NCBI GenBank assembly: GCA_045593845.1
Contig: JAZNXK010000004.1
Location: 78,296 to 142,295 of the forward strand
Length of the DNA: 64,000 nucleotides
Direction of reading: 5' to 3'
DNA from: Alphaproteobacteria bacterium
GTDB lineage: Bacteria > Pseudomonadota > Alphaproteobacteria > RF32 > CAG-239
Numbering within the stretch: the stretch's first letter is position 1; each line of letters opens with the position of its first letter. The translations under genes and the position numbers were made by a program. The notes beneath the pieces were generated by a model that had not been told where the DNA came from, ran no database searches, and saw nothing but the letters and a program-made list of their open reading frames with translations. Positions 31,363 through 56,345 of this stretch are shown here, in pieces.

Positions 31363-31473
31363 ACTCTTTTCCCTAAAAAAACCGATTTCAAGTATATTCC
31401 TAAAAAGCAAAATAGCAAGGAATTTATACACTATTCTGCCAACCTATACTATTTTATGCCCCTTGTTTTTGTC

Positions 31474-31552
31474 AGCCTTCTGCCTGAAACTTTCTTGCGC
31501 AATTCCCTGCCGCGCCATATCATTTGCCAACTCATTTTCTCTGTTTGTCCAT
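31474..31552 (-). pseudogene. chimeric scrap of the modular toxin family at the left edge of the element
   Basis: About 25 nt match the linker region of 36791..37423. These are joined to ~52 nt near-identical to the module-B region (ENELANDMARQGI) of 39001..39909. Confidence 0.6.
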
Positions 31553-31651
31553 AATGAAAGTCGAAATACCTCAAACAAAAAAAAATACTAAACTTTGTCT
31601 AGATTACAAACTTTGTTTGACATTTATATTTTTACGTCATAAAAAACAAAA

Positions 31652-32008
31652 TTACAGCAACCCTAGCCATCCCACATATAAGGGAAATAAAAATACTAAC
31701 TTAGCTAATCTGGGGTGATTTTTCATATTACTTGTTGCAATCAGAAAAAATAATGCAGAAATAATCAAACTATATTTACAACTTTGCATATACAGTTGTT
31801 GATTTTGGTAATTCCATGCCCCATTTGTAGCTTCACTTCCCCAAATCATATCGTTTATCGCCGGCGGATTGAAATATTCTGACAGTAATAAGGCAAAAAA
31901 TGCCATATCCAAAATAACGAACCATTTAAACTGCCATAGAAGTTTAATGATTTCTGCTATGTTTTGCTTTATATTTTGCATAAATTGACCTACTTGTTCT
32001 CGAAACAT
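31652..32008 (-). CDS. 4-TM membrane protein, paralog of 32066..32437 (candidate immunity protein)
   Basis: Shared blocks with its neighbour: KLLW.FKW, GAWNY.NQ, TSNM.NHP.LA. Confidence 0.6.
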   Translation of the reverse strand: MFREQVGQFMQNIKQNIAEIIKLLWQFKWFVILDMAFFALLLSEYFNPPAINDMIWGSEATNGAWNYQNQQLYMQSCKYSLIISALFFLIATSNMKNHPRLAKLVFLFPLYVGWLGLL

Positions 32009-32065
32009 TGTTTTATTTTAAAGATTGTAACTATGATTAATATTACAACAACATAAAATATCATC

Positions 32066-32437
32066 TTAACTAACCAAAGCAAATAACCACTCACATATTA
32101 TAATAAATGTTCCCAACAACATAACTATCCACGGAGATGCAAATATAATCCTTGCCAACAATGGATGATTGCGCATATTACTGGTACCAATAAGAAATAT
32201 AAGAGTATCAATAATAAAATATAATTTCATACTGCCAATATATACTTCCTGATTGATATAATTCCATGCGCCGCGTACATATTCGTAATGGAATATCGGA
32301 TCATTCTCGGCAGGAATAGCTATTAAAGTATATCCTGAAATAACATAATATATCAAATACAGTCCAACATACCACTTAAACGACCACAAGAGTTTGAAGG
32401 TATCTGATATCGCTTGCTTTACTTTATCTTGAAACAT
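32066..32437 (-). CDS. 4-TM membrane protein (candidate immunity protein)
   Basis: Paralog of 31652..32008, directly downstream of the YkuD-like toxin remnant. Confidence 0.6.
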   Translation of the reverse strand: MFQDKVKQAISDTFKLLWSFKWYVGLYLIYYVISGYTLIAIPAENDPIFHYEYVRGAWNYINQEVYIGSMKLYFIIDTLIFLIGTSNMRNHPLLARIIFASPWIVMLLGTFIIICEWLFALVS

Positions 32438-32516
32438 GTTGTTATCCTAAAGGTTGTAATTACTATATTATATCAACAAAAACAAAAGGCAAGGAATTTT
32501 TCCTTGCCTTACATTT

Positions 32517-32795
32517 TTACCATTCCTTCGGATATTTAACATATACCGGAACAGAATCTTGACAATCATCCAAGTAATTACTTAATTTTCCGGTTTGCCA
32601 CGGAATATCTATACATCCGGCTGAACCTTTACTCCAGCCGCCATGAATGAAAAATCCATTACGCTCATAAGTATTGGTCGCAAAGTTTGGTATTGCAACT
32701 CATCTTGAGCTGTAAATCCGCTTTGGTCAACACCATAGCTATCTATCTCCGTTTTGATACCCGAACGGTGATTGATATTTCCCGAAAAAATCCAT
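32517..32795 (-). pseudogene. degenerate modular toxin: N-module with a frameshifting deletion plus a C-terminal YkuD/Tlde1-like fragment
   Basis: ATG at 32795 gives MDFFGKYQSPFGYQNGDR-stop. A shifted frame gives DSYGVDQSGFTAQDELQYQTLR. A third frame gives NGFFIHGGWSKGSAGCIDIPW..VYVKYPKEW-stop. A minus-strand terminator follows at 32487-32511. Confidence 0.65.
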
Positions 32796-32870
32796 CTTAT
32801 TTTCTCCTTTCCGTAAAAAGACAAAAAAGAGCCGCTAAAAAAAATTCTCAACGGCTCCGCTCCAACGATA

Positions 32871-33689
32871 TTAGCTTGCACTTTCCGGCTTTGCTTTAAT
32901 AAAATAGTTTATTGCCTGATTTATCGGTGTAACATGTTGACTGTTACCATATATCGCACTTGTCGGCGCAACCGCCCCTGTTTTTCCCAAAGTAGGTGCC
33001 GTTGTTGTTCCGTTCAAGCGATAAGAAACAGCTGCCGTAGCACTTGATCCTCCTTCAACTGTCAAATAATTTGAAGCCGTCAAACTGACAAGGTTAGATC
33101 TTCCGTTTTCGTTTGCAGCCAAATAGTGATAGTGAGAAGGAACTGCCGGAATACCCTCTGCCTGCGTCGTATAAATATTTGCGGCCGAATTTCCGCCCAA
33201 ACCACGCAAAAACTTTCCTCTATAATCCGGCACATTAAAAGTTGTAACTCCGTTACCGCTGCCAAAATGAGTACCGATCAAAGCATACAAATCACTATAT
33301 GTCGTTCTGCTAACAGCTTGTCCGTTGCACAAAAGCCAATTACCATGATTTGCCGTTTTTACCGAGGCTTTTATATCTCCCACCGGCTGCAACAAATTCA
33401 AAACCTGCATAATTGCTTCATTAACCCCAACATTCAAGCTGTCCAATTGAGATTTATTTACGGCATCTCCCGACAAAACCCCGTTTGCCAAATTACACAC
33501 CCTGAAGCCGCCGGCATTAACATTTCCTTTCATCGGCACACGCCCGTCGCGCAAAAAAGTCTCATTTAAGGCCTGTGCAAAATTATCATCTTCTTCATCC
33601 GCATGGTCGGTAACAATATCTATATTGTTTATTCTATCCTGCTCCCAGTTATGCATTCTCGTAAATTTTCCTTGTGAATCAAAAGGCAT
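32871..33689 (-). CDS. tail fibre protein with phage tail-collar domain
   Basis: WLLCNGQAVSRTTYSDLYALIG..FNVPDYRGKFLRG is the tail-collar signature. Start at MPFDSQGKF has an AGGAGA RBS. Confidence 0.8.
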   Translation of the reverse strand: MPFDSQGKFTRMHNWEQDRINNIDIVTDHADEEDDNFAQALNETFLRDGRVPMKGNVNAGGFRVCNLANGVLSGDAVNKSQLDSLNVGVNEAIMQVLNLLQPVGDIKASVKTANHGNWLLCNGQAVSRTTYSDLYALIGTHFGSGNGVTTFNVPDYRGKFLRGLGGNSAANIYTTQAEGIPAVPSHYHYLAANENGRSNLVSLTASNYLTVEGGSSATAAVSYRLNGTTTAPTLGKTGAVAPTSAIYGNSQHVTPINQAINYFIKAKPESAS

Positions 33690-33752
33690 TATTTTTCTCC
33701 TAAAAAAGTTATAAAAAAACGGCAAACCTTTTGCCGCACCAAAATTTATTTT

Positions 33753-33983
33753 TTAATTTCTGCAAAGTTCTAATTCTTCGCGTAATTTATTTACCCGCCC
33801 CATCCATTCCCAAAAATTTGCAGCCTCGGCAAGTTCAGCTTTTTCAAGTTCATCTGCCACTTTTTTGCCGGCTATCGGATACATCGGGCAAAAGTCATAA
33901 CTTTCCCTCACGCATGAGCACAAGCAAAGCAGAACGCTCAAGATTAGGCTTGCTGTAAATAGCCGCTTTTTTCTTTTCAACAT
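33753..33983 (-). CDS. candidate o-spanin (outer-membrane lipoprotein)
   Basis: Basic N-terminus, hydrophobic stretch and lipobox-like LCSC. It overlaps the 3' end of the preceding TM-protein gene in another frame. Confidence 0.5.
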   Translation of the reverse strand: MLKRKKRLFTASLILSVLLCLCSCVRESYDFCPMYPIAGKKVADELEKAELAEAANFWEWMGRVNKLREELELCRN

Positions 33984-34101
33984 ATTTAATAACCTCCACC
34001 CTTTTGGTAATAACCTCTGTTTTCGCATGAGAGCGCCCCAAATAATATGCTCCGAAAACCAAAGCACAAACTGCAACCGCAATCACAATTATCTTTGTCA
34101 T
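33895..34101 (-). CDS. candidate i-spanin (N-terminal TM plus charged helix, 68 aa)
   Basis: MTKIIVIAVAVCALVFGAYYLG is a TM segment. The ATG overlaps the stop of the upstream small ORF (TAATG). Confidence 0.5.
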   Translation of the reverse strand: MTKIIVIAVAVCALVFGAYYLGRSHAKTEVITKRVEVIKYVEKKKAAIYSKPNLERSALLVLMREGKL

Positions 34102-34244
34102 TATCCCAACTCGGCAATATTTATACCCAAAGCGCAGATTGCCGCCAAAATTCCCCACAGCAACCAATAAATTTTTCGATGCTGTAAAGATTTTGTAATC
34201 AACCACCGCCAAAACAAATATCGGCAATTTTTATGCTTTTTCAT
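34101..34244 (-). CDS. small single-TM protein (47 aa), possible holin/antiholin-like lysis component
   Basis: Not in the ORF track because it is under 60 aa. AAAGGAG RBS, sequence MKKHKNCRYLFWRWLITKSLQHRKIYWLLWGILAAICALGINIAELG, translationally coupled to the i-spanin candidate. Confidence 0.4.
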   Translation of the reverse strand: MKKHKNCRYLFWRWLITKSLQHRKIYWLLWGILAAICALGINIAELG

Positions 34245-34261
34245 TTTACACTCCTTTCATA

Positions 34262-34291
34262 AAAAATTATAAAAAAAGGAGCCCAAAAGGC
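34262..34291 (-). terminator. intrinsic terminator after the N-module stub
   Basis: On the minus strand, hairpin ggagcc/ggctcc is followed by a T7 run. Confidence 0.65.
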
Positions 34292-34372
34292 TCCGGAATA
34301 AATTTCAATACATCAAACCAGAAAAACTATTCAGCATCTTTTTTCTCTCTATCATCTTTCTTGTTTTGCCAA

Positions 34373-34588
34373 TCATCGAAGAACCAATCCATACTGCGGA
34401 TAATCGTTTTGCGCAATCCCCTGCCGCGCCATATCATTTGCCAGCTCATTTTCTCTGCTTAATCGCAATGTTTGATATTGCAACTCATCTTGTGTTGAAA
34501 ATCCGCTATGGTCAACTCCATAGCTGTCAACCCCATTGTCACCGTTTTGATACCCGAACGGAGATTGATACTTCCCGAAAAAATCCAT
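34373..34588 (-). pseudogene. N-terminal-module-only stub of the modular toxin family (71 aa)
   Basis: MDFFGKYQ...YPQYG followed by LVLR-stop. There is no cargo domain. Confidence 0.7.
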
Positions 34589-34647
34589 TTTATTTATCCC
34601 ATATAAAAAATTTATAAACTTTACTACATACAAATTTCGACATTTTA

Positions 34648-34797
34648 TTGACTTTTTTCCATTAATACGCTATATACAAAGTACCTTAAGGTACTTTTCC
34701 AATAGGAATGAAAACCGAAATCGCCTATTGCGTATCTTACATAGGGTTGACAGCCCTGTGCAAGGAAAAAAGGAAGGCTCTCACAAGAGAGCCTTTT
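34648..34797 (+). ncRNA. candidate small RNA, copy 1 (promoter, structured ~115 nt, terminator), convergent with 34801..35181
   Basis: TTGACT-N17-TATATA at 34648-34676. A CCTTAAGG box starts 8 nt after the -10. Conserved hairpin caatagg/cctattg, a second hairpin, then ggctctc/gagagcc plus TTTT. Confidence 0.55.
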
Positions 34798-34800
34798 AAT

Positions 34801-35181
34801 TTATCTTTTAGGATAATATGTAGTAGAGATAAAATTCTTATCATCTTTCAGCGATGTTACAACTCTTAAATCTCCATTTTTACCCTGCGACATATAAACA
34901 TTTTGACCAAATTGATTTGTTTCTACAGGTTCTTGCTTAATTATTCCTGGTATCCTTTTGACATCACTTCTATTAACACCATGCTTATATATTCCCTTAT
35001 TCAAACCAAAATTTCTAACCGTTCCTGTTTCTCGCCCCAAAGCTTTTCCATGTACAATCACATTTCCGTCTTCCCCTGCTATTGCCTCTCCTCGTTGTAA
35101 CACGACAGGTTCTCCGTTATGGTTTTTCATTTTTGCAATTACATCTGTAGCATTACCTGCAACATAAAAAAATTCTGTCAT
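34801..35181 (-). CDS. stand-alone KHGV-type cargo domain (orphan cassette with its own RBS and ATG, 126 aa)
   Basis: Homologous to the C-terminal ~120 aa of 35357..36400. The first part includes a 96-nt identical tract. Confidence 0.65.
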   Translation of the reverse strand: MTEFFYVAGNATDVIAKMKNHNGEPVVLQRGEAIAGEDGNVIVHGKALGRETGTVRNFGLNKGIYKHGVNRSDVKRIPGIIKQEPVETNQFGQNVYMSQGKNGDLRVVTSLKDDKNFISTTYYPKR

Positions 35182-35185
35182 TTCC

Positions 35186-35343
35186 TTGACTTTTACACCT
35201 TAATATAATATATATGAACTGCCTTAAGGTATTCCTTGCCAATAGGAATGAAATCGAAATCGCCTATTGTGTATCCTATACCCGCCAGATAAGCGGTTAT
35301 AGAGAACAAGGAAGAGGAGTTCTTGAACAAAGAACTCCTTTTA
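35186..35343 (+). ncRNA. candidate small RNA, copy 2, convergent with 35357..36400
   Basis: TTGACT-N17-TATATA at 35186-35214, with the same CCTTAAGG box and conserved hairpin. Hairpin 2 and the terminator (ggagttctt/aagaactcc plus TTTT) keep structure but not sequence. Confidence 0.55.
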
Positions 35344-35356
35344 TATATTTATTGTC

Positions 35357-36400
35357 TTACTTTTCAGGAATATATTTATACATTGAAGATATAGTCCTAT
35401 AATCATCAATAGGAGTTGTAGACAACTTAATTTTTTCATTATTACCAAGAAATCTATAAATGTGTTGATTTCTATTATTTATTTCCAACGGTTCATTTTT
35501 AATATATCTTGGAATTTTTACAACTTCATCTCTTGGAACCCCATGTTTATAAATAATTTTATTTAGTCCATAGTTTCTAGCTGTTCCTGTCGCATGTTGC
35601 AAAGGTCTTCCGCTAACAATCACATTTCCGTCTTCCCCTGCTATTGCCTCTCCTCGTTGTAACACGACAGGTTCTCCGTTATGGTTTTTCATTTTTGCAA
35701 TTACATCTGTACCATTTCCCTCAAAAGGATTTTGGCTCAATTTATCATAAGCTCGCCCTATCTTATATCCTTGATACATCATATTTACAGGCTCATATGT
35801 TGCCGCGCCTATCGTTCCTCCGCTCAACATTCCTCCGCCAAATTCTGCAAGTTTTCCAGTTCCATCTGCTAATGTCCGACTATTTTCGTCCTTTAGATTA
35901 AGATAATCATTCATTTTTGTATCAACTCCGAGTTTATTGCCCAACCAGTCCAAACCTCCGAAAGTCATTCCATTTATGGCTCTGTTCATACCATATAATG
36001 TATCCATACCGCTCATCAACAAACCGTTTTCCATATTCCTATTTTGTTGCTGTGTAAACATATTGCTTTCCTGTTCTTGAGACTGTTGATTCTGTACTGG
36101 CATATTTCTTGCCAAGTTCAGCGCGTTTTGTACTGTCGGACTAAGCTTTGAAATATCATAATTCGTAGCATTTGAGAGATTACTACCCCAAAAATTTGCT
36201 CCATACTGCGGATAATTGTTTTGCGGAATTCCCTGCCGCGCCATATCATTTGCCAGCTCATTTTCTCTGCTTAATCGCAAAGTTTGGTATTGCAGCTCAT
36301 CTTGTGTTGAAAATCCGCTATGATCAACTCCATAGCTGTCAACTCCATTGTCACCGTTTTGATACCCGAACGGCGATTGATACTTTCCGAAAAAATCCAT
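35357..36400 (-). CDS. modular toxin-family protein: N-module plus Q/N-rich linker plus Gly-rich region plus KHGV-type C-terminal domain
   Basis: Full N-module and the ISKLSPTVQNALNLAR linker. Start placed at MDFFGKY (36400). Confidence 0.75.
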   Translation of the reverse strand: MDFFGKYQSPFGYQNGDNGVDSYGVDHSGFSTQDELQYQTLRLSRENELANDMARQGIPQNNYPQYGANFWGSNLSNATNYDISKLSPTVQNALNLARNMPVQNQQSQEQESNMFTQQQNRNMENGLLMSGMDTLYGMNRAINGMTFGGLDWLGNKLGVDTKMNDYLNLKDENSRTLADGTGKLAEFGGGMLSGGTIGAATYEPVNMMYQGYKIGRAYDKLSQNPFEGNGTDVIAKMKNHNGEPVVLQRGEAIAGEDGNVIVSGRPLQHATGTARNYGLNKIIYKHGVPRDEVVKIPRYIKNEPLEINNRNQHIYRFLGNNEKIKLSTTPIDDYRTISSMYKYIPEK

Positions 36401-36452
36401 CTTATTTTTCCCTTCCATAAAAAAAAGAGCCTTAAAAGCTCTTTAATGTATA

Positions 36453-36779
36453 TCAAAATGACTTAATAATCATTATCGTTTCGCTCGGATAATAAAGCAT
36501 AACCAAAACTTCCATAATGAGACAAGGTATTGTAATATATTGCAAGCGAAGTTTATCATCATGTATGCACACACTCCACTTTTTTTGTAACACATAACAC
36601 AAAAACAAAGGATGTACTACCCAGAAACATATATCAAAAATAAATAACACCGGAAAAAATGGTACATAAGCATGCAACCCTATCATAACAGAAAAAGCTA
36701 CAGCAACAAAAAAGGCTACTATAAAATCTAGTACTTTAATTATTGTTTTGTTTTCAGTTGTCTTATTTATATTGTACAT
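36453..36779 (-). CDS. 3-TM membrane protein (candidate immunity protein for 36791..37423)
   Basis: Lies immediately downstream of, and adjacent to, the cassette. Hydrophobic throughout. Confidence 0.55.
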   Translation of the reverse strand: MYNINKTTENKTIIKVLDFIVAFFVAVAFSVMIGLHAYVPFFPVLFIFDICFWVVHPLFLCYVLQKKWSVCIHDDKLRLQYITIPCLIMEVLVMLYYPSETIMIIKSF

Positions 36780-36790
36780 AAATAAACCAC

Positions 36791-37423
36791 TTACCAATCT
36801 TTATTATTCACAGCATCACTAATCTTGTTAGTAATATAATTAACACCTTGTGTCAACACTTTTCGCGTTCCAACACCTGCTCCCCTCGTAAGCGGTAATT
36901 GATTAATTTTCACGCCTACTGTATTTGCAATCCCATTAGCAATCAAATTCGTCCCGAAATCTTTCCAATTTTCGGCATATCCGGCAGAAGCAATACCGGT
37001 ATTTGCGACTGCATTAAGAGCATTATCCATTACTTTCGCACCCTTAAACAACCGCAGCGGCGACATCACTGCACCAGCAAATTCTGCCCCACCATATAAA
37101 TACGGATAGTTTGTGCTCAAGTTATTTTGCAATTGTCTGGCTACATCTCTACCTTTGGTATAGTTGTCGCTATTTCCTGTCAACAAAGCCGATACTCCTC
37201 CAAAAGTTTCATCAAAATTTCCTAACGTTAAACCTGTCGTATATCCAACCGCCGCTGCTTGCGTTGCATCAGCAAAATTTTCTCCCCAATTTTTTACCGT
37301 ATTCCAAGTATTATTTTGCTGTTCTTGCGGCTGGCGGCTTTCTGCCGGAAACTTTCTTGCTAAATTAAGTGCATTTTGCACTGTCGGACTAATACTCGCA
37401 ATATCAATCCCGCCTCCTCTCAA
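36791..37423 (-). CDS. orphan cargo cassette starting at the conserved linker (LRGGGIDIASISPTVQNALNLAR), Gly-rich C-terminal domain
   Basis: No N-module. There is an in-frame stop 11 codons upstream, and only a TTG start at the linker. Confidence 0.55.
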   Translation of the reverse strand: MRGGGIDIASISPTVQNALNLARKFPAESRQPQEQQNNTWNTVKNWGENFADATQAAAVGYTTGLTLGNFDETFGGVSALLTGNSDNYTKGRDVARQLQNNLSTNYPYLYGGAEFAGAVMSPLRLFKGAKVMDNALNAVANTGIASAGYAENWKDFGTNLIANGIANTVGVKINQLPLTRGAGVGTRKVLTQGVNYITNKISDAVNNKDW

Positions 37424-37496
37424 ACTCGCATATTGATAATACCATTGACATCATGATTGTTTATCGCCTCATAAAGCCTAGTCCAATTTTGTTTAT

Positions 37497-37979
37497 TTAA
37501 TCCACCGGTGTTATATTGTAGAGAAATATCAAATATAACATCAAGATTATAATTGGTATTGCAATTATTGCATAAAAAACTTGCAAAAATCTGAAAAAAT
37601 AATACAAAATTTTATTTTTATTCTCAAATAAATAGCTATTCCACAAGTAGAGAATAGCAAAAAAGAATAACAATCTGTTAAATATAATCAATATGAGTGT
37701 AAACAAATCAATTTCTGTTGCATTGTTTATTAAGCCTCCCATTTCTAAAAAGATATTTATTCCAAAAGAAGATAAGATAAAAAATATCGAAAATAAAATA
37801 TTAAAGCAAAAATTTTTATAATCACTATAATTTATCCAATATCCGAACCATATCTTTTGAAATAATAGTGGAACAATTATTCCTACATATACAACCTCTT
37901 CTATAAAACCGACAAAAGCAAAAGGCTCAATTAGAATTGTTAAAAATAAAAGTAAAGAAAGCAAATATTTAACAAACAC
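37497..37979 (-). CDS. 5-TM membrane protein (candidate immunity protein for 38063..38476)
   Basis: Very hydrophobic 160-aa ORF with a GTG start, downstream of the glycine-zipper toxin. Confidence 0.55.
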   Translation of the reverse strand: MFVKYLLSLLLFLTILIEPFAFVGFIEEVVYVGIIVPLLFQKIWFGYWINYSDYKNFCFNILFSIFFILSSFGINIFLEMGGLINNATEIDLFTLILIIFNRLLFFFAILYLWNSYLFENKNKILYYFFRFLQVFYAIIAIPIIILMLYLIFLYNITPVD

Positions 37980-38062
37980 TTATTATCCTCCATAATATAG
38001 ATCAAGATAATAAATGAAAAGGTACAAACAGTCAACTTATTTATACATTTCTCATAGATATG

Positions 38063-38476
38063 TTATTTTTCAAATTTTATTGGATTACTTAATAATAAAT
38101 TGCAAGTTTCAGGAACATTATATCTACCAGCAATATATCCTGCCGTAGCTCCGATAAAATCATTTTTCAAATCTTTTTTAGCATCCCCGAGTACCCCTAA
38201 TATACCTCCATATGCCACCCTTTTTTGAGGATCAGCAATTTTATCTTTAGTATCTTGCATTTCTTTATACAACCCTCCTGCTAAAGTTTCTGCAGTAGCC
38301 AATAATCCATCTGTTGAGCCAATACAACTTACATACTGATGTTTATTCACATCCGATATATCAAATTGCAGCTCATCTTGTGTTGAAAATCCGCTATGAT
38401 CAACTCCATAGCTGTCAACTCCATTGTCACCGTTTTGATACCCGAACGGCGATTGATACTTTCCGAAAAAATCCAT
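38063..38476 (-). CDS. modular toxin-family protein: 36-aa N-module fused directly to a glycine-zipper-rich C-terminal domain (137 aa)
   Basis: MDFFGKY..STQDELQ followed by AGGLY..AYGGILGVLGDA..IGATAGYIAG. Confidence 0.7.
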   Translation of the reverse strand: MDFFGKYQSPFGYQNGDNGVDSYGVDHSGFSTQDELQFDISDVNKHQYVSCIGSTDGLLATAETLAGGLYKEMQDTKDKIADPQKRVAYGGILGVLGDAKKDLKNDFIGATAGYIAGRYNVPETCNLLLSNPIKFEK

Positions 38477-38554
38477 CTTGTTTTTCCTTATATAAAAAGT
38501 TTGACAATGTTCGAAAATAAATTTAACCTCTCTTTGTTCTAAAGGAGATAATTC

Positions 38555-39004
38555 ATGAAGAAAATTTTAGTGCTTGTCATTTTACCTTTAATCTATTGCC
38601 TTAATGTTTCTGCTGCAGAAAAAAATATTGATATCCTTGAAAAGGAATTTATAGATTGCGCAGATAGTTGGGAAAAACATGAACAAAAATGTCCGGAATC
38701 ATGGAGTATGAAATGTTATAATCACTTAATGACTGCTCATAAAAATACTCAACAATGCTTTCAAAAAGTTGCAGTAAAATTGTTCACAAATTTCTACGAG
38801 TTATCTGAAAAAGAAGCAAATAAAAAGATTGATGATTTTCTCAAATTCACCTATGACCAATATTTCTTCATTTTTGCCGAAACCGATTTTTGCAAAAAGA
38901 ATAATTGCGGCCTCTCAATATATTTATATAGCGAATATGTAACCACTGACCAATTACGATATTATGTAAACAAAATAATTAGGTCTATATCTGCCAGAAA
39001 TTAA
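38555..39004 (+). CDS. secreted Cys-containing helical protein, possible LprI/DUF1311-like lysozyme inhibitor (candidate immunity protein)
   Basis: AAGGAG RBS and signal peptide ..LNVSA/AE. Convergent with the GH108 cargo gene, overlapping it by 4 nt. Confidence 0.6.
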   Translation: MKKILVLVILPLIYCLNVSAAEKNIDILEKEFIDCADSWEKHEQKCPESWSMKCYNHLMTAHKNTQQCFQKVAVKLFTNFYELSEKEANKKIDDFLKFTYDQYFFIFAETDFCKKNNCGLSIYLYSEYVTTDQLRYYVNKIIRSISARN

Positions 39005-39909
39005 TATTCATTATACCTTTTTCTGTGCCCTCTTTCAAATATTATTTGTGATGGGTCTTTTTTCAGATATTCATCTTCTGCTCGGTTTACATTATTTATA
39101 AAATCTGTTCTTATAGCTTTATAATTTGTATTTCTGACAGCTCCCAAAGTATCTGAACCTATTATACCATCTGCCTTAACTCCGAGAGCTTTTTGCAAAT
39201 TCATAATTGCTGTCGGTTGCCCTTGCACAACACCATCATCAAAAACTATACCTGCCAATTCGTCAGGAAGTTGATTTATTTTGGGTTTTAACCAATAATC
39301 TCGATAATATATTGCATCAGCTCTTTCTCTTGTCATATTTTCTATATCTTCATCCGGATAAATACGCGAACTTATACCATAATTTGTAGCTCCACCTCTA
39401 TCATTCGGATGATTAACATACCCGCCCTCATTTGCTCTGGTTCTATTCATTGCTTGTTGAAAGCGATTATCAGCTAACATTTGATCAATAAATGATTGAC
39501 TAAAATCATTTCCATACAAAGAATAATCAATATTAGCTTCTTGATTACCATCATTCATAACCGTCGACAATACATTTTGAGCATATTGAATAGCCGATTC
39601 ATTTGTTGGATTATTCTTTGCCAAATTTAATGCTGCTTGCACAGTCGGACTAATACTCGCAATATCAAGCCCGCCTCCGCGCAAACTTGCATTCTGCCAA
39701 AAGTTTGCTACATACTGCGGATAATCGCACTGCGCAATTCCCTGCCGCACCATATCATTTGCCAGCTCATTTTCTCTGTTTGTACGCAATGTTTGATATT
39801 GCAACTCATCTTGCGTTGAAAATCCGCTATGATCAACTCCATAACTGTCAACCCCATTGTCACCGTTTTGATACCCAAACGGCGATTGATATTTCCCGAA
39901 AAAATTCAT
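39001..39909 (-). CDS. modular toxin-family protein: N-module plus GH108 lysozyme plus peptidoglycan-binding domain
   Basis: EGGYVNHPNDRGGATNYGI is the GH108 signature. It is followed by a PG_binding_3-like LQKALGVKADGIIGSDTL. Confidence 0.8.
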   Translation of the reverse strand: MNFFGKYQSPFGYQNGDNGVDSYGVDHSGFSTQDELQYQTLRTNRENELANDMVRQGIAQCDYPQYVANFWQNASLRGGGLDIASISPTVQAALNLAKNNPTNESAIQYAQNVLSTVMNDGNQEANIDYSLYGNDFSQSFIDQMLADNRFQQAMNRTRANEGGYVNHPNDRGGATNYGISSRIYPDEDIENMTRERADAIYYRDYWLKPKINQLPDELAGIVFDDGVVQGQPTAIMNLQKALGVKADGIIGSDTLGAVRNTNYKAIRTDFINNVNRAEDEYLKKDPSQIIFERGHRKRYNEY

Positions 39910-40000
39910 CTTGTTTTCTCCTTTACATAAAAAAAAGAGCCATAACGGCTCCTGTAAAAAAATTTTGAAAATTTCAAGTAAACATAAACAACAAAAAATC

Positions 40001-40237
40001 CTAAAAAGGTAAACCTTTCTGCTTTTTCAAGATATTTTCTTTAGTTATAGGTACACATCCTATTTTTTCATCCCAAGTTAAACAATCTGATCGGCATATT
40101 TTTTGCTCAGGGTCATAAATTTTTCCCCCATCAAGGCAAACCATTTTCATATCTAGTTCAAAATAACAATAAATAGCAATTATCATAATTACAAAAAAAC
40201 AAACCAGATATTTTATAATTTTTTTAATACTTTTCAT
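40001..40237 (-). CDS. membrane-anchored Cys-rich small protein (candidate immunity protein for the SAA-like cargo)
   Basis: N-terminal TM plus CLDGGKIYDPEQKICRSDCLTWDEKIGCV. Overlaps the upstream gene by 14 nt. Homologues lie at 56346..56528 and 56476..56874. Confidence 0.65.
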   Translation of the reverse strand: MKSIKKIIKYLVCFFVIMIIAIYCYFELDMKMVCLDGGKIYDPEQKICRSDCLTWDEKIGCVPITKENILKKQKGLPF

Positions 40238-40907
40238 TAATGCCCTCCACTCTCTGATAACGACAGGCTTCTTTAGAGTCAGAATAAAAAGGATTATCCA
40301 CTAATTCTCTCGCCTGAAAATTTACATCCCTATCATGCCAATAATCAGCCAAAGCATCAGGATACGACATTCCTTTGTAATATCTATTCTTGAAATAGTC
40401 AAATACTTCTTTTTCATTTCCTAAAACTTTCGCTGCTAGTTTACCATACATTCCTCTTTGTGCAGCCTCATAATTGCCTTTACAATGAAAATAATCATCT
40501 CCACCAATAGTATTGTCAGATTTCATATCAAAATAATTGCGCACCATATCCATGGTACCACCAAGAACTTGTCGCATTGGAGATTGCTGAGTTTGTTGTT
40601 GTGCAGGCAAACTTCTTGCTAAATTCAGTGCTGCTTGCACTGTCGGGCTCAACCTTGAAATATCATAATTTGTTCCATTTGACAAATTATTACCCCAAAA
40701 ACCCGTGCCATACTGCGGATAATCGCACTGCGCAATCCCCTGCCGCGCCATATCATTTGCCAGCTCATTTTCTCTGCTTAATCGCAAATTTTGATATTGC
40801 AGCTCATCTTGTGTTGAAAATCCGCTATGATCAACTCCATAGCTGTCAACTCCGTTATCTCCGTTTTGATACCCGAACGGTGATTGATACTTTCCGAAAA
40901 AATCCAT
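40224..40907 (-). CDS. modular toxin-family protein: N-module plus serum-amyloid-A-like C-terminal domain
   Basis: DDYFHCKGNYEAAQRG aligns with the vertebrate SAA core [16 protein letters not shown]. The gene starts 12 nt after the endolysin stop. Confidence 0.75.
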   Translation of the reverse strand: MDFFGKYQSPFGYQNGDNGVDSYGVDHSGFSTQDELQYQNLRLSRENELANDMARQGIAQCDYPQYGTGFWGNNLSNGTNYDISRLSPTVQAALNLARSLPAQQQTQQSPMRQVLGGTMDMVRNYFDMKSDNTIGGDDYFHCKGNYEAAQRGMYGKLAAKVLGNEKEVFDYFKNRYYKGMSYPDALADYWHDRDVNFQARELVDNPFYSDSKEACRYQRVEGINEKY

Positions 40908-41668: not shown

Positions 41669-43177
41669 CTATTCTACTGCCGTCCAAACAGGAGTTACCG
41701 TATGAGCTGTGACAGACATTTCAGCAACAGCAAAACTCGTTGCGCTCGCTGACAAAACTTTAAGTCGATAATATTTATGAGCTCCGGAATTAGTAACATC
41801 AAATCCCCATTCATCAGTTGCACCTGCCGTACTGGTACCCGAAGTCAACACACTCCAAGCCGCACCATCGTCCGAATATTGAAATTCCCATCCTTGGATA
41901 AAATAATCGCTTGCATTAGTAATATCCACTCTCGTAACAACAACTGCGGTCTGACTATAAAATTCAAGCCACTTATTAGCATCATTTGTTGAACTTCTGA
42001 AATATGTACTTGAATTACTATCAAAAGCCTTCCAAGCAGGATAATTTGATGAGCTTTCCGTACTCGCAGCGACAGCAAAGCTATCTCCTCCGATTGTACC
42101 GTTTGCACTCAATACCGATTGTGTCCAAGTTCCTATCGTTTCCGAATAACTATAAACCGTATGAGCCGGAATACTAACCGTCCCTAATAAATATCCGTTT
42201 GTGTAGCTGTTATCTTGAGTTAGAACAATAGTTTCATCATTATTGACAACAAAAGCATTTAAGGTAACAGCCGAACCGTCATCAGTATAGTTATAGGTAC
42301 AACCTTGTCTTGCAATAGGGGTATAATCAACAGCTTTCCACCAACTTGCACCATCTATATTTATATATATTTCACCTAAATATATTGTTCCGTTCAGCGG
42401 ATTATCGAGCGATCCTCCGGCACTTCCCACACCAAAGGTAATTACATTACCACCAAGATTTTTATCACCCACAACAGCAATTTCTGTTGTTTCTTCACCG
42501 GCAAAAGCTCCTGTAGTTGAAAGTTTCACACTATATGTGGTACCGTCATAAGAAGCTTTTACCCAGTATTGAGTATTGGTCTGAATAGTAGTCGTACCCG
42601 ATACGCCGCTTGCAACATTTTGAGATGTCCCATTTGAAGAAATATTGACTTTTAATTTTGCATTCTCAATAAACAACTTCATTCCTGTCATCAATTTATG
42701 ACATAATACGGACTGATAACCTATTCCTTTTACCGAAAAAGAAACCATAATATCCCAAGTTGTAAAATTTGAAGGTAAAACATCAATTGTCTCAAGGTAT
42801 TTTGAAGTAGTAAATCCGCTTACTTCATAATTGCTGTCAATAGTCAGACTTCCTCTTTCAACAATATTAAGCCCCAATTCAGCCACCCCGCTGTACCATT
42901 GTCCGGCAGGCATAAAGCAATATTTATTTTCCAACAAATAATTATAATAATCCCACTTCCATGGCAGAACGGTAGCAGAAAAATTCAAAGGTAAAGCAGA
43001 TGATTGTTGAGTTTCAGCAGTCATACTCAAACCATCATAATTTTGCATTGCAATATCAAGGACTTGTGAAGAATTAAAAAATTGATTTTCCTGTAAATAA
43101 TCCCATTTGCCCATTGCTCTTGCATAAACACTATAAGGCAAGGTCTTATACACCATAAAATTTTGACTTGAACTCAT
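41669..43177 (-). CDS. tail fibre/receptor-binding protein with lectin-like and C-terminal discoidin (F5/8 type C)-like domains
   Basis: NYPAWKAFDSNSSTYFRS...WLEF...GWEFQYSDDGAAW pattern. Confidence 0.7.
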   Translation of the reverse strand: MSSSQNFMVYKTLPYSVYARAMGKWDYLQENQFFNSSQVLDIAMQNYDGLSMTAETQQSSALPLNFSATVLPWKWDYYNYLLENKYCFMPAGQWYSGVAELGLNIVERGSLTIDSNYEVSGFTTSKYLETIDVLPSNFTTWDIMVSFSVKGIGYQSVLCHKLMTGMKLFIENAKLKVNISSNGTSQNVASGVSGTTTIQTNTQYWVKASYDGTTYSVKLSTTGAFAGEETTEIAVVGDKNLGGNVITFGVGSAGGSLDNPLNGTIYLGEIYINIDGASWWKAVDYTPIARQGCTYNYTDDGSAVTLNAFVVNNDETIVLTQDNSYTNGYLLGTVSIPAHTVYSYSETIGTWTQSVLSANGTIGGDSFAVAASTESSSNYPAWKAFDSNSSTYFRSSTNDANKWLEFYSQTAVVVTRVDITNASDYFIQGWEFQYSDDGAAWSVLTSGTSTAGATDEWGFDVTNSGAHKYYRLKVLSASATSFAVAEMSVTAHTVTPVWTAVE

Positions 43178-43179
43178 TT

Positions 43180-43866
43180 TTACCTCACATTCAAATAAGC
43201 ATTATTTTCCGTTGTTGAAAGTGTAATTGCCAAACTATCAGGCATAATTACATTTGCAGTTATCTCCGCACCATTTGCACCGCTTGAAGCCGCAAATCCC
43301 GTAAAGGAATTTTGGTTTATATAAGTAAAAGTACGCAAATAAAACATACTGTCGCCGCTATCCTTACAAATCCAAACTTTATTCCCTAAATCTATGCTTG
43401 CTCCCGTATTATTTTTTGCTGTAATAATATCAATATCACCTCCGCCGGCATCATAAGTACCCGTTACTCCAAGAATTGTAACATCTTTTTTAATATTTTC
43501 CGCAATAATATTGCTATCGATAGAGGAAGTAACCGCATCAACACTAACTTCATCATATCCGTTATAAGGATTTGAGGGAGTATGCATTTGGGCAGATGTT
43601 GACGGAGTAATCGAAAGCACAGTTGTATTTTTTTCAATAACACTTCCGCTAACACCCAAAATACTGACCCCGCTTTTGATATTTTCTGATATTATATTAT
43701 TATCAATACTCGAAGTAACCGCAGAAACACTAATCGGCGAATATCCGTCCACACCTCCACTTGCAGTTATTGTCTGCGACGAGGTTGTCGGCATAATACT
43801 CAAGCTTTCAATCACAGACGAACTTCCCCCATTGGAATTATATCCATAATCAAATATCAATGTCAT
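43180..43866 (-). CDS. tail-associated protein with internal ~55-aa tandem repeat
   Basis: Repeats carry VSAVTSSIDNNIISENIKSGVSILGVSG and VDAVTSSIDSNIIAENIKKDVTILGVTG. Confidence 0.6.
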   Translation of the reverse strand: MTLIFDYGYNSNGGSSSVIESLSIMPTTSSQTITASGGVDGYSPISVSAVTSSIDNNIISENIKSGVSILGVSGSVIEKNTTVLSITPSTSAQMHTPSNPYNGYDEVSVDAVTSSIDSNIIAENIKKDVTILGVTGTYDAGGGDIDIITAKNNTGASIDLGNKVWICKDSGDSMFYLRTFTYINQNSFTGFAASSGANGAEITANVIMPDSLAITLSTTENNAYLNVR

Positions 43867-43870
43867 CGTC

Positions 43871-44131
43871 TTAATCCGCTATATTGATTGTTGAAACAGC
43901 ATTTTGCAAAGATTTAACCCAAAGCTTTCCACCGGTTGAAATCCATTGAAAAGGCTCTGCATTTGTTTTGTAGAAACCTCCTTTTGTCGGCTTGTTTTCC
44001 GCTTCACAAATCAGCAACTGTCCGTTTACTTGCAAAACATAAGTTTTATCAGCCGTAAAAGTAACACCGGATAATGTTTCCAAATCTTGATAATCATCAT
44101 TTGGATTTACTGTAATAAAAGCTAAATTCAT
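43871..44131 (-). CDS. small phage structural-module protein (86 aa)
   Basis: ORF packed tightly within the fibre module. Confidence 0.5.
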   Translation of the reverse strand: MNLAFITVNPNDDYQDLETLSGVTFTADKTYVLQVNGQLLICEAENKPTKGGFYKTNAEPFQWISTGGKLWVKSLQNAVSTINIAD

Positions 44132-44166
44132 TTTTCATCTCCTAAAAAAATTAAAAAAAAAGAGCA

Positions 44167-44490
44167 TTACTGCTCCAACTCATTTATTCTTTCTCGCCAT
44201 TGTTGCCGTTGTGCAATAACATCAGCATATTGTTCCGCAGTTGCCACCCCTTCGGCAATCTTAATCACAACATAATCCGTTGCCGCAAGATAGGCTTTCA
44301 GCTGTTCGATTTCCTCTCTGTGGCTAGGCTTATAATCAGGATTTTCTACCACACTAGTGCCGTTCCACATATATCGTTCCAAATCATTATAAACCGCCTC
44401 GGATATTTCATAATTGATAACACCTTGTGTTAATTGTCGGCACTCACCTTTGCCGTCAATTTTTCCATTTTTTATAAATGCATAATACAT
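44167..44490 (-). CDS. tail-fibre assembly/chaperone-like protein
   Basis: Lies directly after the fibre gene. C-terminal pattern ATDYVVIK..W..R..I..L resembles Caudovirales tail-fibre assembly proteins. Confidence 0.5.
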   Translation of the reverse strand: MYYAFIKNGKIDGKGECRQLTQGVINYEISEAVYNDLERYMWNGTSVVENPDYKPSHREEIEQLKAYLAATDYVVIKIAEGVATAEQYADVIAQRQQWRERINELEQ

Positions 44491-44499
44491 AACTTTCTC

Positions 44500-45603
44500 C
44501 TAGCTGTTTGTTCCAATCCGACGATACCCTCGAAGGTTCAAATTATATTTTCCTGTATTGTTTGCATCTGCGTGAACTTGAATTATCCGTCCTTGCCCTA
44601 CCGGCAAAACACCTGTTCCTCTTGCAACATTTGTAAAACTTCCTCTTGTAATCGCCCTACACAACCATAATCCATAATTTGGCAATATATCAGAATAAAC
44701 TGTCAGTTGCGAACTATCGCCACTATTACTTCCTGTTTCAACTGACCCAACAACAATAACTTCATATTTATAATTGTCATCAGGAAGATAATTTGATATA
44801 TCGTATTCATCTACGTCCAAAGTTGGTAAACTTACATAATTGGCTATTTGTAATTGACTAGCGACCCATTGTCCGTCTAAATTCTTGCTTGCAGAGGTTG
44901 CTAAATTAGATAAATCATATTTTGCATAATTTTGACTGTTTACAAAAGCAGTTGTTGCAATTTGAGTTGAATTATCAGATGTTGCAGGTGTCGGCGCAGA
45001 TGTATAAACATCACCATTTTCATCATAACCGATTACAATTTCAACACTATCTGTTGCCTCCAAATTACTGCAACTCAAGTTTGATGCAACACTGGCATCG
45101 GCACAAACTTTGTGCTGTGCCGCACCTAATATTGCTCCCGTACTATCCGCAAAATTGATACTGCTTACCTGATCTTCAATCGGAGCAGTTCCTATCAAAG
45201 TAGAAGTATTTTGTATTATCAAAGCCGGAGCCTCATTTTTTGATATAAGCGGATTTTGCACAAAAGTTTTTACGGCATCTATACTCTGCTCATCAGCAAG
45301 AGTAACACATTTTTCTGAAAAAGGAAAATTATTCAAATCAACCGAAGATGTAACAACATCAGTTCCTTCCAAACTCAAAATATTATCATTCAAATCAATA
45401 TGATAAGTTATCAGCTTTGATGTTTCTCGCGCAACATATTCATCAATTTCCGGCTTGGCAACCTGATTAACATAATTTTCAATCTCATCCTCTCCATATT
45501 TCAAATATTGCATATCGATATTTGCTTCCAATGTAGCATCTTTTTGAAAATAAACGTCGAAATCCTTTGCAACATACGGCTCAAAAATATTTATTCCGCT
45601 CAT
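44500..45603 (-). CDS. tail fibre protein
   Basis: 367 aa. The STQIATTAFV motif is typical of fibre proteins. Lies in the tail module. Confidence 0.65.
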   Translation of the reverse strand: MSGINIFEPYVAKDFDVYFQKDATLEANIDMQYLKYGEDEIENYVNQVAKPEIDEYVARETSKLITYHIDLNDNILSLEGTDVVTSSVDLNNFPFSEKCVTLADEQSIDAVKTFVQNPLISKNEAPALIIQNTSTLIGTAPIEDQVSSINFADSTGAILGAAQHKVCADASVASNLSCSNLEATDSVEIVIGYDENGDVYTSAPTPATSDNSTQIATTAFVNSQNYAKYDLSNLATSASKNLDGQWVASQLQIANYVSLPTLDVDEYDISNYLPDDNYKYEVIVVGSVETGSNSGDSSQLTVYSDILPNYGLWLCRAITRGSFTNVARGTGVLPVGQGRIIQVHADANNTGKYNLNLRGYRRIGTNS

Positions 45604-45604
45604 C

Positions 45605-45961
45605 TCAAACTCCTTTTACTATTTCAAAAACTGCATTTTTGGTAATATCCTGCGGAAAAATCGTATGCACATCACCATTGGCAAAAACCACTCTGATATT
45701 TGCCTCATAAACACCGACATCAATAGCCGTATGCAGAGGAGTTATTTTAATCACTGCCATCCCTTTTAGGGGCTCGACAATTTCTCCGTTAACACTCAAA
45801 ACACTACCTTCTTCATTCTTCACACTCAAGGTAATAATTGCCCCGGTAATATCCAAATCTTTACCGCACTTATCCTTAAAATGCATAACAATATCATAAC
45901 TGTCACCTTGTTTAATCAAGATTCCTTCGTGTGTCATAATTCCTGTCATTTCAATCTCCAT
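45605..45961 (-). CDS. small beta-rich (Ig-like) tail-module protein
   Basis: ORF translationally coupled on both sides. Confidence 0.5.
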   Translation of the reverse strand: MEIEMTGIMTHEGILIKQGDSYDIVMHFKDKCGKDLDITGAIITLSVKNEEGSVLSVNGEIVEPLKGMAVIKITPLHTAIDVGVYEANIRVVFANGDVHTIFPQDITKNAVFEIVKGV

Positions 45962-46887
45962 TATTTTGCATTTTTAAGAGAATTATCGGCAATATCTTCT
46001 ACCGCCAAATCATAACAAACCATCAAATACCCGTTATCATCTCTGAATACAGCTTCAGGTTTTACCTCGGCAACCTCTTGCGCCAACAAGCCTAACTGCG
46101 AAACTTTTGACCCTGCAAAATTAAAGCAATAAACCGTCAAACCATTATCAAGTTTTCCGACCGGTCTGATATTTTCTTTCAATCTGACATCCGAAAACAT
46201 TGCCAATCCGGCCGAGCTGATTAAATTGCTCAAAAACTGCTTTCCTGCCTCGGTTTGTGCGTTGTTATTAGCCTGTTTTGTCGCATCAATTCTTGCATCT
46301 GAACTACGCTGTGCATTATAAATATTTAGTGCATTATCATAACCGGAATAAGAGTTTTGCAACTGCGACAAAATTTGGCTCAAATAGTTGTTTTGAGCGC
46401 TATTTGCAAAGGTTCCGGCACTAATTGCATTATTCAAACTTTGATTATAAGCATTTTGCCCCGCCAAAACCGAACGATAAGCCGCCTCATTATAAGCATT
46501 GTTTTGATTTTTTAGCAAATTATCCATTGCATTGTTATAAGCCGCACTGCCTACACCAATTCCCTGATTTTGTAATCTTGTTTCCAAATTATTAGTCTGT
46601 TGCTCGAACTCCGGTGTCAAGAGGTTTGTATATGCTTGATAAGTTGCATTTTCAGCTCTTTGGCGAGCTTCATCGGAACCGTCAACATTAAAAACATAAC
46701 TTCCCGTATTGTCAAGATTTTGACTCATGCTGTATGCATTATTCAACAAATTCTGCAAAGTATTGTCATAAGTCGAAGTATCATAATTTTGCAAATAATT
46801 TAGTATATTATTTTCCGAAGTATATCTGTTTGTACTTGCACCTCCGGCACCCAACAATTTGCCCACAGCCTTAAATCCGCTAGACAT
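45961..46887 (-). CDS. N/Q-rich fibre-like protein with C-terminal intramolecular chaperone (peptidase S74-like) domain
   Basis: SDVRLKENIRPVG...LLAQEV..V.PEAV motif at the C-terminus. Confidence 0.7.
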   Translation of the reverse strand: MSSGFKAVGKLLGAGGASTNRYTSENNILNYLQNYDTSTYDNTLQNLLNNAYSMSQNLDNTGSYVFNVDGSDEARQRAENATYQAYTNLLTPEFEQQTNNLETRLQNQGIGVGSAAYNNAMDNLLKNQNNAYNEAAYRSVLAGQNAYNQSLNNAISAGTFANSAQNNYLSQILSQLQNSYSGYDNALNIYNAQRSSDARIDATKQANNNAQTEAGKQFLSNLISSAGLAMFSDVRLKENIRPVGKLDNGLTVYCFNFAGSKVSQLGLLAQEVAEVKPEAVFRDDNGYLMVCYDLAVEDIADNSLKNAK

Positions 46888-46899
46888 TTTTTTCTCCTT

Positions 46900-47334
46900 T
46901 CATACAAATTTACAATCCTCGCGCAACATCCCCAAGACAAAGGCATCTTTGCCATCGGGATAATAAGCACGCATTTTTCCCTCTTTCACAAAGCCGCATC
47001 TCATAGCCAACGATACAGAAGCTTTATTATCCTCACAAATAAGCGCATTAATTCTTCTGCATTTCAAAGCATTAAAAGCCACACCGAAAATTTGGCGCAA
47101 AACTTTTGCCGTGCACCATTTTTTATCCCAAGTGCAAATACTTATCCATGCAGAATCATTTTCGCGATAATCACTATACGCAACCATCCCCAGACACTTA
47201 TCTTCTCGCAAAATCTCAAAAACAAATCCTTGAACAAACTCCATTTCATCCAAATTAAGCTTTTGCGCAATCTGTCTGGCAGCGGCCATACCTGTTTTAT
47301 AAACAATCTCAACCAAGTCCTTCTCCTTGTTCAA
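46900..47334 (-). CDS. GNAT-family N-acetyltransferase
   Basis: RimJ/L-like pattern (..NKASVSLAMRCGFVKEG..). Confidence 0.7.
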   Translation of the reverse strand: MNKEKDLVEIVYKTGMAAARQIAQKLNLDEMEFVQGFVFEILREDKCLGMVAYSDYRENDSAWISICTWDKKWCTAKVLRQIFGVAFNALKCRRINALICEDNKASVSLAMRCGFVKEGKMRAYYPDGKDAFVLGMLREDCKFV

Positions 47335-56282: not shown

Positions 56283-56345
56283 CTCCTTCTCCCACAAAAA
56301 AAGGAGCCTCAAATGCTCCTGCAAAAAATCCCGTAATTCAAACCA

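Follow-up and report, generated by a model that had tools for sequence, protein, structure and literature searches.

A new covarying RNA family opposite BECR-like toxin domains in Alphaproteobacteria and phages: a candidate RNA immunity factor

Two small elements in a stretch of 64,000 nucleotides (nt) from an Alphaproteobacteria bacterium (GTDB lineage RF32; CAG-239) belong to an RNA family that is new, strongly covarying and absent from Rfam. The stretch, called the window here, covers positions 78,296 to 142,295 of contig JAZNXK010000004.1 (assembly GCA_045593845.1), and positions are counted from its first letter. Each element lies on the plus strand and converges with a minus-strand gene whose product ends in a toxin domain with a KHGV motif. 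The RNA would be the dedicated partner of this domain, a BECR-fold (KH) RNase by prediction, and would occupy the immunity slot of a polymorphic-toxin cassette. Inhibition of an RNase toxin by an RNA is an arrangement of a known kind; it is the RNA family that is new. The reading preferred here, at a probability of about 0.55, is that the RNA serves as an immunity factor or antitoxin which would bind and neutralise the RNase, in a manner that is type III-like in its logic and outside the known families.

From promoter to terminator, copy 1 extends over positions 34648-34797 (+) and copy 2 over 35186-35342 (+). Both promoters consist of TTGACT and TATATA separated by a 17-nt spacer (34648-34653 and 34671-34676 in copy 1, with a predicted start near A34683; 35186-35191 and 35209-35214 in copy 2, where conservation of the promoter at family level adds to the assignment). 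A CCTTAAGG box begins 8 nt past the -10 element in each copy (34684-34691 and 35222-35229, reading CCUUAAGG in copy 2), and in copy 1 it provides the loop and stem of a 5'-terminal mini-hairpin, ACC-UUAA-GGU (34683-34692). It is followed by a hairpin of conserved sequence, caatagg-N17/N16-cctattg (34700-34730 and 35239-35269), by a second hairpin of different sequence and like structure (34737-34763 and 35276-35302), and by an intrinsic terminator identified by terminator scan. The terminator of copy 1 is an 11-bp hairpin with a U-run (34772-34797) ending 4 nt from the stop codon of one toxin gene; that of copy 2 is a 13-bp hairpin with a U-run (35312-35342) ending 15 nt from the stop codon of the other. 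The promoters, the boxes, the two hairpins and the terminators had been listed in an initial annotation made from the letters alone, and every one of them was found again at its position. Its description of the element as two hairpins was incomplete: both hairpins are present, but a third helix, P1, which closes a three-way junction, had been missed.

Both copies were scored with a covariance model, R1, built from homologous units, and match it far beyond chance. The copy 1 unit (34689-34781; 82 bits, E ~1e-23) comprises P1 (34695-34700/34764-34769), P2 (34701-34706/34724-34729, with an AA bulge and a UGA/UCG extension), the J2/3 segment GCGUAUC (34730-34736) and P3 (34737-34746/34754-34763). 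The copy 2 unit (35229-35320; 86 bits, E ~1e-24) comprises P1 (35232-35238/35307-35313), P2 (35239-35246/35263-35269), J2/3 UGUAUC (35270-35275) and P3 (35276-35285/35293-35302). With filters off, nothing else in the window scores above 12.3 bits. The copies share 81% identity, their conserved half contains one indel of 1 nt and one of 2 nt, and both fold far better than shuffled sequence (z -5.5 and -6.1). P1 differs between them yet pairs in each (UUUUCC/GGAAAA versus UUCCUUG/CAAGGAA), which constitutes covariation. Each element is predicted to be a non-coding RNA gene of about 115-125 nt, lying opposite the toxin gene, with a sigma-70-type promoter of its own that would drive its transcription in vivo.

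The two convergent genes differ in extent. Copy 1 faces an orphan toxin module, a 126-amino-acid (aa) open reading frame (ORF) at 34801-35181 (-) that holds only the KHGV C-terminal domain (CT); the CT profile matches it at 34804-35160 with E 2e-60, and its homology to the full gene starts inside a conserved GN.TDVIAKMKNHNGEPVV segment. Copy 2 faces a full-length gene of 353 aa at 35357-36418 (-), with 120 homologues, whose product begins with an N-terminal MDFFGKYQSPFGY... domain and ends in the BECR-like RNase domain (about 35360-35728), where K57 and H62 of the KHGV motif are invariant. Both terminator hairpins are bidirectional, since the terminator scan calls them on the toxin strand too. 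On the minus-strand side, the copy 1 terminator lies 4 nt past the orphan toxin stop and CCTTTTTTCC comes next; the copy 2 terminator is weak on the toxin strand, where it has a CTTCCTTGTT tail.

For comparison across the family, 33 genome loci encoding a CT homologue were fetched, and the DNA just past the stop codon was inspected. The common core is a three-way junction of about 85 nt, closed by P1. Its P2 is conserved and has an AA bulge and a loop reading yGAAA...AAUCG; the GUAUC of the junction is invariant, and P3 varies. When 31 homologous units were aligned with MAFFT, the consensus had 25 pairs, of which 21 show compensatory double changes. Paired cells amount to 91.7%, as against 72.2% in column shuffles (0 of 500 as high) and 38-55% when partners are slid. 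The bases G..GAAA, AAU.GC and GUAUC are invariant across units, and the loop and junction bases stay invariant across lineages with 30-68% G+C. In the Rfam scan, which the initial annotation had suggested together with a covariation check, Rfam 15 gave no relevant match at the gathering threshold on the window, at E<=10 on the region, or in the homologous loci.

On the strand opposite the toxin, G.U outnumbers A.C by 73 to 19, an excess which indicates that the structure is selected on that strand. This asymmetry bears on the possibility that the element works at the level of DNA or transcription, as a cassette boundary, an attC-like recombination site, or a bidirectional terminator with an outward promoter. 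Every CT cassette does end at such an element on its 3' side, exchange of cassettes between loci occurs, and bidirectional terminators would fit such a role. However, the asymmetry points to selection on one RNA strand, and cassettes are joined within the 5' half of the CT coding region, which is conserved, and not at the element. Unlike attC, the element combines a three-way junction, whose unpaired bases are invariant, with a promoter and a terminator; nor is there an integrase nearby. The attC-like or pure-terminator reading was rejected on the strand asymmetry and the position of the cassette junctions, and action at the DNA level is considered very improbable.

A very small immunity protein encoded within the element is the least credible of the alternatives. 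A 45-aa ORF at 35193-35330 (-) and ORFs at 34708-34869 and 35214-35402 (+) are available for it, short ORFs occur on both strands, and 28 of the 31 units have at least one open toxin-strand frame across the 84-nt core. The 1-nt and 2-nt indels between the window copies nevertheless break the frame, the minus-strand ORF of copy 2 is without a counterpart in copy 1, and the substitutions are compensatory for base pairing. The loop of the most conserved segment measures 5 nt in 26, 6 nt in 9 and 7 nt in 33 of 82 distinct units, and this variation in length is incompatible with a conserved reading frame. Such frame-breaking indels led to the rejection of the peptide reading. The initial annotation had likewise argued for RNA rather than peptide and had named a conserved small ORF in homologues as the finding that would speak against it; neither a frame nor such an ORF is kept among the 82 distinct units.

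Outside the invariant positions, the family varies in several ways. The 5' mini-hairpin takes the form ACC-GAAA-GGU in other lineages, or is missing, and it would seem to fit a 5'-end stabiliser better than an operator. The element past the toxin stop in locus L010 and the second unit in L022 form a variant class with GGUAUA in place of GUAUC and another P2 loop, which R1 misses. In minimum-free-energy folds of single units, the P3 loop has 7 nt in 27 of 81 and 6 nt in 28 of 81, and the consensus of the 31 units has 7 loop columns. The window loops are UUGACAG (34747-34753) and CAGAUAA (35286-35292). Many 7-nt P3 loops follow the pattern YUGNNAA (CUGAUAA, CUGCAAA, CUGCUAA, CUGCCAA) and resemble an anticodon loop; speculatively, the P3 hairpin could be an anticodon-stem-loop-like decoy that sets specificity for a tRNase. 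Pairing between the P2 and P3 loops, inspected by eye, is not general. The tRNAs found by ARAGORN and Rfam are all unrelated to the element. A tRNA-Gln(CTG) lies in the window at 5271-5344 (-), distant from the cassette cluster; in L001 a tRNA gene stands at 1121-1194 (+), less than 1 kb upstream of the toxin CT. An 18-nt motif of the RNA core, AATCGCC-N6-GTATC (34719-34736 and 35258-35275, both +), recurs in the same sense and spacing in the YQSPFGYQ 5' coding region of every gene that shares the N-terminal domain (32756, 34549, 36361, 38437, 39870, 40868, 56243 and 57424, all -). With at most one mismatch, the window has 11 sites against 0.24 expected, one of them (15480-15497, +) unrelated. 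The sharing is probably a coincidence, because the eight coding sites represent one homologous motif with synonymous variation.

The RNA and the toxin domain are tightly linked, whichever of the two is taken as the starting point. R1 detects 98 units in 59 sources, which are gut, rumen and phage sequences, and all 98 lie on the strand opposite a KHGV-domain homologue. Starting from the toxin, 32 of the 33 genome loci have the RNA just beyond the stop codon, and the 33rd, L010, carries the GGUAUA variant. Starting from the RNA, viral and metagenome contigs were searched with a degenerate pattern, and R1 served to filter the hits; real units were obtained at 25 loci, and the domain adjoins in 21 of them. 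The exceptions are the short contig L042 and toxin-less orphan arrays (L043/L057 and L055). The hairpin of the window itself, sought as an exact pattern in viral contigs, gave no match, and a looser hairpin pattern gave one real match (L036) among five. The view that these are independent small non-coding RNA genes convergent with toxin genes, as first suggested for the window, thus extends to essentially all homologous loci, where the same arrangement recurs. The suggestion that the toxin lacks a protein immunity gene also stands: in all homologous loci examined, the immunity slot is without a protein gene or conserved peptide and is filled by the RNA gene. The more alike two CT tails are, the more alike the variable regions of their RNAs tend to be (Spearman 0.28 between the identities, reached by 0 of 2000 permutations); this co-divergence is not separable from linkage and is consequently not used as proof of specificity.

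Signals for separate expression are also a property of the family. Of 68 distinct arrays, 40 have a sigma-70-type promoter no more than 75 nt upstream, as against 3 of 68 on the control strand. It has the form TTGACx, a spacer of 16-18 nt and TAxxxT, often with an extended TG, and the -10 element is TATATT, TACATT or TATAAT in most homologous loci. A termination signal, made up of a G+C hairpin and a U-run, is present downstream of 57 of 70 arrays.

The RNA gene persists where the toxin gene is damaged or absent. CT fragments that have lost their 5' part each keep a full RNA gene with its promoter, as in L001, L012, L017 (two to three truncated fragments in each) and the window; the RNA scores beside such fragments are 71.8 and 83.6 bits in L001, 83-95 bits in L012 and 82 bits in the window. 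In L074, the CT type that is an orphan in the window forms the C-terminus of a full-length gene and is followed by a copy-1-type RNA (83 bits), which indicates that CT and RNA move as one module, like toxin/immunity pairs. RNA arrays with good promoters and no toxin domain nearby occur at L043:2385-2585(+), which equals L057, and at L055:13871-13961(+); the former is chromosomal and the latter lies next to a phage terminase. Among 70 distinct arrays counted with R1, 55 hold one unit, 14 hold two and one holds five. Divergent units stand in tandem inside a single promoter-terminator interval at L040:1881-2393(-), with five units, and at L029:3330-3760(-), with about four by eye. The linkers in these two arrays are 2-6 nt long and show no obvious conserved cleavage motif.

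A profile search of 1.84 billion proteins for distant homologues placed the domain inside large phage polyvalent proteins that also contain LPD38. Four of these genes (794-1585 aa) carry the RNA unit antisense inside the ORF, directly after the segment that encodes the domain, and the embedded units have their own promoters of the form TTGACx-N17-TAxxxT. They lie at L077 4133-4227 (-) in a 1200-aa ORF (49.6 bits, TTGACT-N17-TATATT), L036 6411-6499 (-) in a 794-aa ORF (46.6 bits), L032 3391-4005 (-), where an 892-aa ORF holds three units, and L075 4386-4481 (-) in a 1585-aa ORF (21.7 bits). The four cases indicate that, in a large subclade, RNA and domain stay coupled whatever the gene architecture, although the coupling is not universal.

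Control in cis has to be weighed as well. In this explanation, which is the main rival and yet an unlikely one, the RNA would pair, type I-like, with the 3' end of the mRNA or with the coding region in which it is embedded, or colliding polymerases would repress the toxin gene. All 98 units converge with the toxin domain, the terminator hairpin is common to both strands, the weak toxin-strand terminator of copy 2 would allow read-through and overlap, and the RNA is fully antisense to the ORF in L032, L036, L075 and L077, which lends the explanation some support. A perfect cis-antisense RNA, however, has no need of a conserved fold, yet covariation is seen in 21 of 25 pairs, and the bases of the loops and the junction do not vary. 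The extra divergent units of the arrays and the toxin-less orphan arrays have no complementary toxin mRNA, orphan CT fragments without a start codon still keep the RNA gene, and the toxin is not a small membrane peptide of the type I style. The fold, the invariant unpaired bases, the arrays and the orphans therefore go unexplained by control in cis.

The nature of the toxin domain was approached through structure prediction. Neither window toxin ORF matches a Pfam family at E<=0.01, and PDB sequence searches with two profiles, PADLOC and PHROGs likewise gave no match for these proteins. An AlphaFold2 model built from a diverse alignment of 41 sequences reached a predicted local distance difference test (pLDDT) score of 95.8; an earlier model from 27 close sequences had a pLDDT of 59.8, and its fold search was not significant. 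The top Foldseek match is CdiA-CT of Serratia marcescens BWH57 (7m5f_C; E 1.5e-3, probability 1.00, template-modelling (TM) score 0.46/0.48), and RelE, MqsR and ParE appear in the tail. The 7M5F toxin has been described as a BECR fold (PMC8616854). Weak Pfam matches to PBECR1 were obtained for 5 of the 41 family members (best E 0.0024) and to PBECR3 for 2 of them, with others to DUF4258 and HigB. Among the 41 diverse homologues G26, G40, G54, K57 and H62 are invariant, and K61 is common. A histidine preceded by lysine has been reported for colicin-like BECR RNases, including PBECR3 (2026 BECR survey), and H62 with the preceding K57 and the semi-conserved K61 fits this pattern. The BECR-fold model, the CdiA-CT match, the weak PBECR matches and the lysine/histidine pattern together suggest that the domain is most likely a new BECR-family RNase.

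Another alternative is that the RNA does not inhibit the domain but serves it as cofactor, substrate or cargo, for example by being bound or processed to form a virion-packaged ribonucleoprotein, or as a guide or activator RNA. Some PBECR domains have been predicted to work via RNA binding (Iyer et al. 2017, PMC5512222), RNA and domain adjoin strictly across architectures, and the context is that of phages, with a terminase, portal and capsid gene of a prophage in the window and polyvalent proteins with LPD38 elsewhere. On the other hand, partnerless orphan RNA genes and divergent arrays beside one toxin are a trait of an immunity repertoire and not of a cofactor, and the RNA is not co-transcribed with the protein but has a separate promoter, of constitutive type, on the other strand. 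A cofactor or cargo role is regarded as distinctly unlikely.

The reading of the RNA as a directly binding antidote is best supported because of the immunity slot, an orientation like that at the GH108 cassette described below, the independent promoter, the retention of the RNA beside orphan fragments and as toxin-less orphans, the divergent arrays and the nucleic-acid-binding partner. Each RNA module would bind and block one RNase domain. The conserved core would form the common docking surface, and the variable P3 hairpin and the apical loop of P2 would be fitted to the last ~40 residues of the cognate toxin, which are hypervariable. Expressed constitutively from its own promoter, the RNA would shield the producer or lysogen, as well as cells with orphan copies, against RNase made inside the cell or delivered from outside. 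A broader proposal goes further. It holds that a new class of immunity is at hand, in which a polymorphic BECR RNase effector, probably delivered by phages, would have a structured RNA and not a protein as its cognate antidote; this is tentatively put at slightly less than an even chance. RNA immunity genes would in that case act like immunity proteins, travelling with cassettes, persisting as orphans and building multi-specific arrays, and could even lie antisense within the ORF of their effector.

Several observations weigh against the antidote reading. The BECR assignment comes from a moderate structural match (TM 0.46-0.48) and sub-threshold Pfam matches, and the TATATA boxes of the window lack the canonical final T of the -10 element. 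Co-inheritance of the cassettes and co-divergence of CT and RNA would be expected from physical linkage alone. At the embedded copies, antisense effects are possible because the RNA is fully complementary to the mRNA there, and three more distant homologues with an internal domain (L079, L080 and L081) are without a detectable unit. Known toxin-binding RNA antitoxins, those of type III, are moreover co-directional tandem repeats of 34-45 nt upstream of the toxin, unlike the genes described here.

Both KHGV loci belong to a minus-strand cluster of cassettes, and a podovirus-like prophage adjoins it, with a large terminase (54309-55661), a portal (52142-53977), an SU10-type capsid protein (50161-51180) and tail proteins (41669-48856). 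The cassettes have in common an N-terminal domain, M(D/N)FFGKYQSPFGY..GDNGVDSYGVDHSGFSTQDELQYQ, and differ in their C-termini, which are a GH108 lysozyme (39001-39909), a serum-amyloid-A-like (SAA) domain (40224-40907) and the KHGV domain of the full-length gene already described (35357-36418). At least 10 genes or fragments with this domain lie on the minus strand at 31444-40907 and 56154-57553, with GH108, SAA-like, BECR-like or unassigned C-termini; two of them are upstream of the terminase, one being frameshifted (57338-57553 into 56887-57405). In homologues outside the window, the N-terminal domain is also joined to PF16754 and PF10908 domains. It is without a Pfam or PHROG match. The cultured-phage database contains no CT homologue, and a single unannotated faecal phage fragment matches the N-terminal domain only. 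The toxin homologues come from metagenome-assembled genomes of uncultured gut and rumen Alphaproteobacteria/Rhodospirillales.

Other genes of the cluster were also noted. A 149-aa ORF with a signal peptide at 38555-39004 (+) is oriented towards the GH108 cassette (39001-39909), with a 4-nt overlap at the stop of the latter. It probably represents the periplasmic protein immunity gene of that cassette, in the same convergent slot as the RNA. After the last cassette fragment, small overlapping membrane-protein ORFs at 33753-34244 (-), one with a weak Rz-like spanin match, may be part of a phage lysis module, and a tail-collar/YadA-stalk protein (32871-33725) comes next.

If the antidote reading is true, toxin immunity extends to RNA; immunity to polymorphic or injected toxins is described only for proteins in the searchable literature. 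There would then be a fourth, structurally unrelated family of RNA-inhibited RNase toxins, and it would be explained why a BECR-like effector family that is widespread among Alphaproteobacteria of gut and rumen and their phages lacks an immunity protein. Whatever the function, the RNA family is new, and complete RNA genes can sit antisense in protein-coding sequence; the embedded copies put coding sequence to a second use, their promoter, fold and terminator-like end all lying inside an ORF. The system is also compact, with a domain of ~120 aa and an RNA of ~90 nt, and its natural cognate and non-cognate pairs make RNA-protein specificity and co-evolution testable.

Among known systems, the PBECR domains of phage polyvalent proteins and the colicin-like BECR RNases are close on the protein side. 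The order of helices followed by an antiparallel sheet, the invariant histidine with a preceding lysine, the weak PBECR1 and PBECR3 matches and the position of distant homologues inside large LPD38 phage proteins are common to both. Nevertheless, the window proteins have no match and the homologues fall below every curated Pfam threshold, so the domain would at best be a new BECR family. An RNA partner for PBECR or BECR domains, or an RNA immunity factor of polymorphic toxins, is not described in the searchable literature.

The initial annotation had left the choice between a type I and a type III-like antitoxin. In type I pairs such as txpA/RatA and bsrG/SR4, as here, a convergent small RNA gene ends a few nt from the toxin stop and the terminator region is shared. 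Type I toxins, however, are membrane-acting peptides of fewer than 60 aa, whereas the ORFs here encode 353 and 126 aa with what is predicted to be a soluble alpha/beta RNase-like domain. The overlap here is probably limited to the terminator hairpin (~25-30 nt), the fold and unpaired bases are conserved, and tandem and orphan units occur without a complementary target. Type I consequently fits poorly, in view of the large RNase-like toxin, the limited overlap, a fold kept by compensatory change, the invariant loops, the tandem arrays and the toxin-less orphans.

The type III-like alternative fits best, and in their logic the type III systems are the nearest known ones, although no known type III family accommodates the locus. 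ToxIN, CptIN and TenpIN also combine an endoribonuclease-type toxin with a dedicated structured non-coding RNA and no protein antidote; their RNA units may repeat in tandem (one to five here), their context is phage-related, and their RNA binds and inhibits the RNase, as proposed here. The differences lie in the family of the toxin, the size of the repeats and the order of the genes. The toxin, with a predicted BECR fold and no Pfam or PADLOC match, is no relative of ToxN/AbiQ, CptN or TenpN. The units are three-way junctions of ~85-90 nt, mostly single as in both window copies, and not pseudoknot repeats. The RNA gene lies downstream and convergent with its own promoter, whereas type III repeats precede the toxin gene of their operon, with a terminator between the two. 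Furthermore, the toxin here belongs as a module to a polymorphic protein that is probably delivered, or lies internally in a phage polyvalent protein.

Polymorphic toxins (CdiA-CT/CdiI, Rhs, MafB) offer a close parallel in cassette organisation. Here, unlike in those systems, the antidote position is taken by an RNA gene on the opposite strand, and an uncharacterised N-terminal domain stands beside a podovirus-like prophage instead of a contact-dependent inhibition (CDI), type VI secretion (T6SS) or type VII secretion (T7SS) locus. As in those systems, a conserved N-terminal region carries swappable C-terminal toxin domains, and the gene in the proposed antidote role directly follows the toxin. 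Orphan CT modules lie downstream of the main gene, each with an intact gene in the antidote position, and the same module of CT and partner occurs as an orphan in the window and fused to a full-length gene in L074.

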